Shown in pieces: positions 58,537-59,165 of a stretch of 64,000 nucleotides of DNA. Each line of letters starts with the position of its first letter. Within the stretch, counting starts at the first letter, position 1. The stretch lies in contig CAAGHO010000048.1 of the NCBI GenBank assembly GCA_900769695.1, positions 4,698 through 68,697 of the forward strand, read 5' to 3'. The position numbers and the translations under genes are program-made. This DNA comes from Bacilli bacterium. GTDB taxonomy: Bacteria > Bacillota_I > Bacilli_A > RF39 > UBA660. Below the pieces are notes generated by a model. The model was not told the origin of the DNA. It did no database searches and saw only the letters and a list, made by a program, of their open reading frames with translations.

Positions 58537-58562
58537 AATCAAGCAAGAAATTTTGCTTGATT
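58537..58562 (+). terminator. Hairpin, second copy of the cassette hairpin
   Basis: The stem is aatcaagcaa/ttgcttgatt with loop gaaatt, followed by TTT. It is near-identical to 49213..49238. Confidence 0.6.
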
Positions 58563-58571
58563 TTTCATTAT

Positions 58572-58580
58572 GGGGGGGGG
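58572..58580 (+). repeat. Poly-G tract (G9) directly abutting TTATAAT
   Basis: Counted directly: ...cattat GGGGGGGGG ttataat... It sits ~40 nt upstream of the ATG at 58620. Confidence 0.9.
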
Positions 58581-58619
58581 TTATAATAATCTTAGATATA
58601 GTAAAATAGGTGATCTAGG

Positions 58620-59165
58620 ATGAAAAAAAGTTTGAAAGTATCAATTATAATAGCAATAATAACTTGTATTATTTCGATAAGTGGATCATACGCTGCGACA
58701 AATTATGCGATAAGTGCTATAAAGATAGGATATTCAGATAATTCTAATTTAGGAGCAGATAATGTTCAAGCAGCAATCGATGGTACATGCAGTAAAGTTG
58801 ATACTAGGCTTGGTAATATCGAAAAAAGTAAACAGAATACTTTAACTACTACTACAGGTACTGTTAGTATAAATTTTAAAACACTTCATAGTGGTGATAA
58901 TTGTACAAAAGCATATAAATACGGAAATACAGTTATGTATAATTGTCCATTTGTTCCAGAAAGTGATATTTCTACTAATACATCTATATTAACTTTTCCT
59001 GATGGATATAGACCTATATCTCAAACTTATGTTGTAATTAGTGTTTCCGGTACTGGTTATTCCTACAATGCTGTTTTAAGTGCAACAGGTAATTTAAGCC
59101 TTGCCAATAATAATTTAAAATCAAATGTATGGTATCAATTATCAATTACTTTTATTTCTTCTTAA
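58620..59165 (+). CDS. Secreted protein, shorter paralogue of 49297..50271
   Basis: The signal peptide ends ...SGSYA/AT. IGYSDNSNLGADNVQAAIDG aligns with VGYSDNNDLGAVNVQDAIDK of the 49297 protein. The C-terminal part is unrelated and lacks the YWL...RP module. Confidence 0.55.
   Translation: MKKSLKVSIIIAIITCIISISGSYAATNYAISAIKIGYSDNSNLGADNVQAAIDGTCSKVDTRLGNIEKSKQNTLTTTTGTVSINFKTLHSGDNCTKAYKYGNTVMYNCPFVPESDISTNTSILTFPDGYRPISQTYVVISVSGTGYSYNAVLSATGNLSLANNNLKSNVWYQLSITFISS

Follow-up and report, generated by a model that had tools for sequence, protein, structure and literature searches.

What does a run of nine guanines do directly upstream of a TATAAT box, in DNA with a G+C content of 26.5%? 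The question arises in a 64-kb stretch of contig CAAGHO010000048.1 from an uncultured gut Bacilli lineage (64,000 nucleotides, hereafter the window; coordinates are positions in it). Two genes of the window, referred to as copy A and copy B, are each headed by a hairpin, a poly-G tract, a -10 box and a ribosome-binding site (RBS), and an earlier note on this DNA had taken them for members of a family of contingency loci. With a probability of about 0.75, the unit and the proteins behind it are best explained as a contingency family in which a simple sequence repeat (SSR) in the promoter spacer switches each gene. Phase variation is here inferred from sequence rather than demonstrated. Switching by repeat tracts has precedents elsewhere; for this lineage of bacteria and this protein family it has yet to be reported, and no account of the family turned up in literature searches.

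The control unit and its two copies

The control unit of copy B consists of the following elements:

58537-58562 (+): RNA hairpin AATCAAGCAAGAAATTTTGCTTGATT (AATCAAGCAA-GAAATT-TTGCTTGATT), with a stem of 9-11 bp read from the sequence
58537-58567 (+): predicted terminator, hairpin plus T-run, the T-rich stretch covering 58563-58571
58557-58562 (+): putative -35 box TTGATT, within the 3' arm of the hairpin
58572-58580 (+): G9 tract, inside the 19-nt spacer (58563-58581) between -35 and -10
58582-58587 (+): -10 box TATAAT, read from the sequence and preceded by a T (58581)
58588-58619 (+): conserved leader aatCTTAGATATAGTAAAATAGGTGatctagg, with the RBS AGGTGA at 58608-58613
58620 (+): start codon ATG, read from the sequence

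The corresponding elements of copy A are:

49211-49264 (+): control unit (49211-49296 up to the ATG), with the terminator hairpin at 49211-49240 and its stem-loop at 49213-49238
49233-49264 (+): putative promoter, TTGATT at 49233-49238, a 20-nt spacer with G10 at 49248-49257, and TATAAT at 49259-49264
49297 (+): start codon ATG

All the elements that the earlier note had listed for the second cassette are present, including the G9 tract and the 19-nt distance from TTGATT to TATAAT. The SSR lies between a recognisable -35 and -10 in both layouts, which read TTGATT-N9-G9-T-TATAAT in copy B and TTGATT-N9-G10-T-TATAAT in copy A. The two units are 84% identical in a pairwise alignment (74/88); the repeat is a real one, although its description as 'almost base for base' was slightly generous. 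The mosaic conservation proposed for the pair is borne out by a segment-wise identity profile: the 100 nt upstream of the unit are 53% identical, the signal-peptide codons 57%, the 54-nt stretch encoding GYSDN..NVQ.AID about 85%, and the 300 nt that follow 53%, which is the baseline for this DNA. Sequence shuffles gave an expectation of zero chance matches to the hairpin pattern. Runs of at least eight G, for which 0.06 would be expected in the 64 kb, occur in copies A and B only. A search of the whole window on both strands against Rfam at the gathering threshold returned no RNA family.

Both hairpins are located directly 3' of a co-directional gene, in copy A an SPFH/band-7 gene (open reading frame (ORF) end at 49185) and in copy B a gene for a zeta-toxin/AAA_33-like kinase (stop codon 58529-58531), and both were called as intrinsic terminators in a terminator scan. 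The minimum free energy of the RNA hairpin is -14.1 kcal/mol for copy A (z -4.65) and -13.2 kcal/mol for copy B (z -4.10). When 26 divergent copies from related genomes are aligned, their 9-bp stem is paired in 231 of the 234 cells, and two of its pairs show double compensatory changes, from C-G to A-U in three sequences and from A-U to C-G in two others. The frequent single stem changes are A>G substitutions, found in the 5' arm only, which produce G.U in the RNA of the + strand and C.A on the opposite strand. Since such changes keep the pairing on the + strand only, the hairpin appears to act as RNA on the strand of the gene, like a terminator. Its stem is only moderately G+C-rich, with three G-C pairs. 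Judged by stem, T-run and covariation, the hairpin is a Rho-independent terminator, which would insulate the downstream promoter.

In paralogues without the hairpin (L009, L015, L021 and L069; L numbers denote the compared loci and contigs), the putative -35 region CTTGATTTT is retained, so that TTGATT and the Ts following it persist. Rabbit-gut relatives carry a perfect TTGACA at the -35 position, and TATAAT is invariant in the cassettes of the TTGATT type. TTGATT and TATAAT would together form a sigma-A-type promoter with the G tract in its spacer.

A family of cassettes with variable tracts

The cassette is not confined to two sites. A genome scan, with one genome per GTDB species, identified 52 loci in 7 metagenome-assembled genomes (MAGs), all titled 'uncultured Bacilli bacterium' and derived from human (Hadza) and rabbit guts, and a pattern scan of metagenomes added 29 more contigs. 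At least 19 of the loci are found in the Hadza-gut MAG CAKOXP01, whose flanking genes are 84% identical to those of the window; nearly every copy in this MAG carries the hairpin, TTGATT, the G tract, TATAAT, the leader and the RBS. Pooled from the genome scan and the metagenomes, 67 unique family cassettes were tallied, some of them with a perfect TTGACA. The median DNA identity among 54 unique paralogues is 72% in the cassette, 59% in the signal codons, 67% in the module that follows them, and 55%, the baseline, further downstream. The unit forms the left end of homology at unrelated sites (after a tRNA gene, jag near oriC, an SPFH gene, a kinase gene), and family members are scattered over the chromosome as well as gathered in short arrays.

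Nor are the tract lengths fixed. L002 (ERZ27229808), a metagenome contig assembled independently, aligns to the window without mismatches across 12,976 nt; its one gap, the sole difference, is the tract of copy A, G9 in the contig and G10 in the window. With 32 mismatches to the window, L003 again has its single gap at the poly-G. G10 is present in the window and L006, and G9 in L002, L003 and L085, each length thus occurring in at least two independent assemblies. The orthologous tracts of copy B comprise the alleles G9, G5AG4 and G5TG3 (as assembly consensus, not reads): G9 in the window, L001, L070, L098 and L099, GGGGGAGGGG in L059 (99.6% identity across 2.15 kb), and GGGGGTGGG in L094-L097. 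Length polymorphism between near-identical sequences, as looked for in an SSR promoter, is hence found at the level of the assembly consensus. Another allele of copy B, G6 with a 17-nt spacer in L093 (3990-4000), was excluded from the count because several genes are split in that assembly, as is typical of homopolymer errors.

Contigs also break at or near these units. One contig break, recorded for L004, falls inside the tract of copy A; the contig of GCA_902463045.1, an assembly that contains an identical sequence, starts within this tract. The start of the family gene is located less than 400 nt from a contig end in 17 of the 52 loci (for example L014, L015, L019, L021 and L022). Several contig ends share extra repeats upstream of the cassette, such as ...cccgttagaaaaaaaacgggaagttaaataaataatttacc and aaaaaagtataaactccc.

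Three independent, lineage-specific designs have a mutable tract in the spacer. The first, TTGATT-N9-11-G9-10-(T)-TATAAT, is that of the window; in rabbit MAGs, the second is TTGACA-N8-9-G10-11-TAT(A/T)AT; the third, TTGACA-tct-G9-tattgaac-TATAAT, precedes an orthologue of copy A (57-60% protein identity) beside jag/trmE. In the rabbit-gut MAG CANRCA (L032, L033, L035, L042, L045), TTGACT-tttc-(AT)n-TATAAT replaces the poly-G in front of the same gene family, four copies having (TA)n spacers of 15 nt, 2 nt away from 17, and one copy a spacer of 17 nt. The swap of poly-G for (TA)n at one and the same spot points to selection on a mutable spacing and not on a G-specific site. As a side observation, the family genes of another rabbit-gut MAG, CANQIM (L026, L029, L031, L040, L041, L044), begin some 240 nt downstream of TTGACA-N9-G10/11-TATAAT. 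The interval between promoter and gene contains a short hydrophobic ORF (MNKKLSKILIF...), and the switch may therefore drive a two-gene unit.

In the proposed mechanism, a portable control unit heads every family member of this uncultured gut lineage. The terminator would stop transcription arriving from upstream, and the family gene would depend on its own promoter only, a sigma-A-type promoter with its -35 in the 3' arm of the terminator and a G9-G11 tract in the spacer, directly upstream of TATAAT. Slipped-strand mispairing at replication would add or remove G, altering the spacer length and, with it, the promoter strength. Each gene would consequently switch stochastically, heritably and reversibly. 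The product would consist of a Sec-type signal peptide, a module of about 32 residues, a helix and an exchangeable C-terminal head, resembling the receptor-binding protein (RBP) of lactococcal siphophages in copy B and the T4 Gp10_C/tail-fibre tip in numerous paralogues and alleles. Head swaps between copies could in addition use the 5' unit and the module, both conserved, as homology.

Among the 67 cassettes, 61 tracts are pure (G8 once, G9 42 times, G10 12 times and G11 six times) and six are interrupted; the spacers measure 18 nt in 6 cassettes, 19 nt in 47, 20 nt in 13 and 22 nt in one. Promoters recognised by sigma-70/sigma-A favour a spacer of 17 +/- 1 nt. By this rule, a promoter with the modal 19 nt would be weak or OFF, and the loss of one or two G would switch the gene on. 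One possibility is that the sampled populations have most copies in a weak or OFF state, as in tprL of Treponema pallidum, whose tract has 9 G in most molecules, is active with 8 G and drops to near background with 10 G (PMC7864442); the other is that 19 nt is the active spacing. A mostly OFF state fits a contingency family with most members silent in most cells, and it has a parallel in the (TA)n lineage, in which most spacers are likewise 2 nt from 17. Alternatively, 19 nt may be the active spacing, for example with a required factor, and the unusual mode could mean that a dedicated factor or sigma fires these promoters.

Several observations weigh against SSR switching. None of the 67 spacers has the 17 nt that are optimal for sigma-70/sigma-A. 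The 19-nt mode is sharp and is kept across flanks of 8-11 nt, G numbers of 9-11 and an optional T; it looks like selection for exactly 19, which drift in an OFF state leaves unexplained. The six interrupted, presumably stabilised tracts precede intact ORFs, and some of them also give a 19-nt spacer, before intact genes found in four samples. A simple promoter scan did not call the promoter of copy A or B, because it allows spacers of 16-18 nt only and the copies have 20 and 19. The tract lengths are those of the assembly consensus, and homopolymer lengths from short reads can be wrong. Two further points concern the product of copy B, described below: its signal peptide was recognised by eye only and no anchoring motif was found, display and release being both possible, and the N-terminal 45 residues of its model are of low confidence.

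Some of these points would also suit a static G-tract element, a regulator site or structural spacer that was inherited with the duplicated unit, the genes being regulated conventionally and G9/G10 reflecting assembly errors. The modes at the 19-nt spacer (47/67) and at G9 (42/61) look like selection for one length, and spacers of 19-20 nt are typical of activator-dependent promoters, for example of the MerR type. Interrupted tracts with intact genes do exist, and the G6 of L093, in an assembly with fragmented genes, proves that assembly errors occur. Such an element is nevertheless hard to reconcile with 61 of 67 pure tracts, despite flanks at about 72% identity in DNA of so low a G+C content, or with a tract that shifts within the spacer between lineages and becomes (TA)n in one of them. 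Moreover, both lengths of copy A recur in independent assemblies, as the only difference in 13 kb. A static element is thus unlikely, and the SSR promoter remains the preferred reading.

Encoded proteins and the exchange of their heads

The genes behind the two units are as follows:

58620-59165 (+): copy B gene, 181 aa; signal codons 58620-58694, module ATNYAISAIKIGYSDNSNLGADNVQAAIDGTC at 58695-58790, predicted helix and then beta-sandwich head at 58800-59162
49297-50271 (+): copy A gene, 324 aa; signal peptide of the same kind, variant module GYSDNNDLGAVNVQDAIDKL, conserved 245-residue domain

A protein database search with the 181-aa protein gave 127 clusters, all with an N-terminus like a signal peptide and with the module YAISAxKIGYSDNSNLGxxNVQAAIDGTC. 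The parts that follow it are mutually unrelated, many being Gp10_C and the others belonging to at least three further types. The common part of the family has no entry in Pfam or NCBIfam. A family with a shared control region and N-terminal module and with exchangeable C-terminal parts, as the earlier note had supposed, is hence apparent from the paralogues of a single genome as well as from the head swaps described below.

The N-terminus of the copy B protein, MKKSLKVSIIIAIITCIISISGSYA followed by AT, resembles a Sec signal peptide, with a predicted cleavage region between ISGSYA and AT, and the product would be exported by this route. Neither a lipobox nor a sortase motif was recognised by eye, and the protein does not qualify as a Vlp-type lipoprotein; the paralogues do not conserve the Cys at position 16, which follows I-I-T. 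The AlphaFold2 model, built from 23 sequences, exhibits an N-terminal hydrophobic helix, a low-confidence linker corresponding to the module, a helix (residues 46-71) and a beta-sandwich (residues 77-180, pLDDT 85-93). In the PDB, Foldseek matches this head to the RBP head of phage TP901-1 (4ios_A, E 3.7e-5, TMt 0.66; 4ios_B, TMt 0.73), aligned with an rmsd of 2-3 A over about 88 columns. Further matches are the RBP of phage p2 and gp15 of Listeria phage PSA, E ranging from 4e-5 to 1e-3 over all three phages, and the structure matches in BFVD are phage RBPs and minor tail proteins. The head is therefore predicted to have an RBP-head-like beta-sandwich fold preceded by a helix, and the short helix probably trimerises.

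At the sequence level, the 181-aa protein has no match in Pfam or NCBIfam, no tblastn match in 50,697 phage genomes, and only a weak PHROG minor-tail match (E 2.6e-4). As sequence homology is lacking, the head is assigned to an RBP-head-like fold and not to the RBP family itself. A phage origin of the copy B gene was considered and rejected, given the absence of the module from IMG/VR viral contigs, the lack of a tblastn match in phages and the lack of a prophage context.

Neither the 181-aa nor the 324-aa protein matches Pfam PF21939 Gp10_C (T4 baseplate gp10 C-terminal domain/tail-fibre tip) at the gathering score. This domain is found in many paralogues (E 1e-12 to 1e-22), among them the proteins P0011, P0016, P0021 and P0088 with the same module (E 1e-16 to 1e-22). 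P0011 equals the window protein over 57 aa and then continues into a Gp10_C head; a PDB sequence search with it gave no match. The Gp10_C part of the paralogues matches phage tail fibres at about 30% identity.

The copy A protein belongs to a larger family, conserved over the full length, that numbers 590 protein clusters or more and is absent from Pfam. The 245-residue C-terminal domain of this protein is modelled at a pLDDT above 90, and a fold search of the PDB gave nothing significant for it (best E 0.38). Some relatives, few in number, have Flg_new and ricin-type lectin domains in addition, a hint of carbohydrate binding. The products of the family are probably carbohydrate-binding surface or secreted proteins, with ligand binding presumed. 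It is conceivable, though speculative, that domesticated phage RBP heads are mounted through the module on a common surface anchor and that at least 20 poly-G promoters generate a combinatorial, phase-variable lectin repertoire. Such a repertoire might, equally tentatively, bind host or microbial glycans or serve as decoys against phages or antibodies.

Strain comparison at the kinase-gatC site, where copy B is located, revealed at least seven allelic arrangements:

window, L001: 181-aa gene, remnant of a reverse transcriptase (RT), genes for the 661-aa, 133-aa and DUF2201 proteins
L060: 260-aa Gp10_C gene, second cassette, 234-aa Gp10_C gene
L059: 305-aa Gp10_C gene
L092: 181-aa gene, cassette, 234-aa Gp10_C gene, without RT
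L070: 181-aa gene, other DNA after 59207
L093-L097: 181/185-aa gene and RT remnant to 59522, then joined to window position 63580
L098, L099: 260-aa Gp10_C gene, 181-aa gene, RT remnant to 59457, followed by the remainder in a version of 68% identity
L007 (Hadza MAG): 183-aa orthologue, without kinase gene and without RT

In L059 and L060, the left breakpoint is 58799, exactly the end of the module, and the right boundary is at about 63985 of the window. The other breakpoints are at 59206/7, about 40 nt past the stop codon, and at 59457 and 59522, within the RT remnant. Heads and signal peptides recombine both ways, the same N-terminus being joined to different heads and the same head to different signal peptides; for example, the signal peptide MRDKRKII... 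is joined to the RBP-like head in L094, and in L063 to a Gp10_C head. The simplest inference for this head swapping would be homologous exchange, with the 5' unit and the module as the conserved sequence, and nothing shows that the hairpin/poly-G unit itself catalyses recombination.

A role in mobility instead of expression control is nonetheless conceivable: the unit might serve as a site of recombination, or might terminate a small mobile cassette resembling an integron attC site or a MITE, and would then insert head genes at many places, the RT gene among them. In favour of this are the many unrelated chromosomal sites at which homology has the unit as its left end, the strong rearrangement between the kinase gene and gatC, and the truncation of the RT immediately 3' of the gene. 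None of the breakpoints at 58799, 59206/7, 59457 and 59522 falls at the hairpin, however; the stem substitutions keep pairing on one strand only, through G.U, as in a terminator; and the -35/-10/RBS geometry is conserved. Furthermore, no integrase or transposase accompanies the copies, and the module is absent from IMG/VR. This role is quite improbable, and the homology that the SSR-controlled units provide is preferred for the exchange of heads.

Some further observations were made at this site. A 17-nt inverted repeat, CAGAAAAATATTTTTTA (59190-59206 / 59511-59527, one mismatch), has arms that coincide with the breakpoints 59206/7 (L070, L092) and 59522 (L093-L096); the coincidence may be due to chance, since the window shows no enrichment of the motif (8 occurrences at up to three mismatches, 6.3 expected). 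The ORF after the 305-aa Gp10_C allele in L059 (3013-3195) begins MSETISKFYTCRNDRAFKEVFMKEE... and by eye is like the Rpn/YhgA-like PD-(D/E)XK recombination-promoting nucleases. A T-box-like leader, also judged by eye, precedes gatC just past the end of the window (about 11400-11690 in L001).

The DNA downstream of copy B contains:

59200-59850 (+): RT remnant of the type found in diversity-generating retroelements (DGRs), 5'-truncated; the RT-frame ORF, 59125-59850, overlaps the end of the 181-aa gene
59166-63985: strain-specific 4.8-kb island with the RT remnant and ORFs at 59880-61865, 61862-62263 and 62273-63766

A truncated RT ORF indeed begins at the end of the gene, as had been noted: the 181-aa ORF ends at 59165, and homology to RT begins 35 nt after its stop. 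The remnant corresponds to about residues 125-351 of a 351-aa gut-phage RT, with residues 125-277 aligned at 59200-59667, and has the YMDD and the DGR-type LGNQSSQ motifs. It matches phrog_1423 (E 9e-58) and the RTs of gut phages, of Faecalibacterium phage FP_Brigit and of Bordetella phages, in agreement with the DGR clade. An intact RT with a pair of template and variable repeats (TR/VR) was not found: the missing N-terminal part of about 124 residues is nowhere in the 64-kb window, as searched with two full-length phage RTs, and searches for TR/VR repeats (57600-62300, and 58800-63985 against the whole window) gave only noise. With its 5' truncation and no template or variable repeat, the RT is a dead remnant, a neighbour with no part in the switch. 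The gene/RT junction, common to L093-L099 and absent in L092, L070, L060, L059 and L007, is an older event later eroded by deletions, as its presence in many strains suggests. Of the cassette-mediated recombination or insertion that the earlier note had suggested for this junction, the hot spot of rearrangement stands, and exchange catalysed by the cassette is unsupported.

Of the remaining island genes, one encodes a protein of 661 aa that matches nothing in Pfam or PADLOC, another a 133-aa protein, and the third a protein of the DUF2201_N/DUF2201 type (metallopeptidase and VWA-like). The island has a G+C content of 28.7%, compared to 24% in the flank, and other strains lack it or have deletions of 59523-63579. 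A defence system among these neighbours was considered and rejected, PADLOC matching the RT remnant only, to generic DRT/UG models, and leaving the other three genes unclassified.

That the 181-aa gene is or was the target of this DGR, varying by mutagenic retrohoming, is very improbable and was rejected: the RT is of DGR type with LGNQSSQ and best matches to gut-phage RTs, and DGR targets are often phage RBPs, but the repeat searches and the missing RT N-terminus speak against it, genes of the 181-aa type occur without RT in L092, L070 and L007, and the allele differences are scattered, not clustered.

Comparison with known systems and significance

Poly-G tracts in the promoters of T. pallidum tpr genes and tp0126 and of Neisseria meningitidis porA set transcription through the spacer length, and in tp0126 and porA the G tract is located between -35 and -10 (PMC7864442). 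The unit described here resembles those of T. pallidum (tprE/G/J, tprF/I, tprL, tp0126) and porA in its poly-G promoter tract in front of genes for putative surface proteins; as in T. pallidum, it recurs in several members of a single family, and tprL likewise has its mode at 9 G. In contrast, the host is a low-G+C, uncultured and probably commensal gut Bacilli lineage, the protein family is unrelated, the terminator is fused to the promoter and provides the -35 with its 3' arm, and the modal spacer is 19 nt with none of 17.

A relative within the GTDB class Bacilli is the host of the vlp genes, Mycoplasma hyorhinis. In this system, reportedly described by Rosengarten and Wise in 1990-91 (cited in PMC11868660), Yogev et al. 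in 1991 and Citti and Wise in 1995, each gene has a conserved 5' block and is switched independently by a homopolymer in the spacer. Both families combine a conserved promoter and signal peptide with divergent external regions, suited to combinatorial surface variation. The vlp tract is poly(A) and its products are lipoproteins with external regions of tandem repeats, whereas the tract here is poly(G), no lipobox is recognised and the heads are globular and phage-like; the present family is also scattered over the chromosome in addition to forming short arrays. The fimbrial promoter hifA/hifB of Haemophilus influenzae is said to have a (TA)n spacer (van Ham et al., 1993, cited in PMC11868660). 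The likeness is confined to the sister lineage CANRCA, with (TA)n between TTGACT and TATAAT, as the window uses poly-G; the promoter here is single and not divergent and overlapping.

The predicted helix and compact beta-sandwich head are shared with the RBPs of TP901-1 (ORF49), p2 and PSA (gp15), whose heads are likewise exchanged on conserved N-terminal parts. Unlike these RBPs, to which no sequence similarity is detectable, the proteins are encoded on the chromosome with no prophage context, and a putative signal peptide takes the place of the baseplate-docking shoulder, followed by a module not found in IMG/VR.

Phase variation by repeat tracts is textbook knowledge in Neisseria, Haemophilus, Campylobacter, Treponema and Mycoplasma, and is barely charted in uncultured gut Bacilli. 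In this lineage, terminator, poly-G promoter, signal peptide and module make up a single compact unit that a whole family has in common, with at least 19 genes in one small genome. The payload is noteworthy as well, consisting of chromosomal heads of phage-RBP type with a putative export signal, shuffled between strains. For those who assemble and annotate these genomes, contigs tend to break at the cassettes. If the switch is confirmed, poly-G length would become a marker of population heterogeneity in metagenomes, the unit would be a natural example of an insulated, tunable promoter, and its genes would supply candidate glycan-binding adhesins in a lineage so far ungrown.

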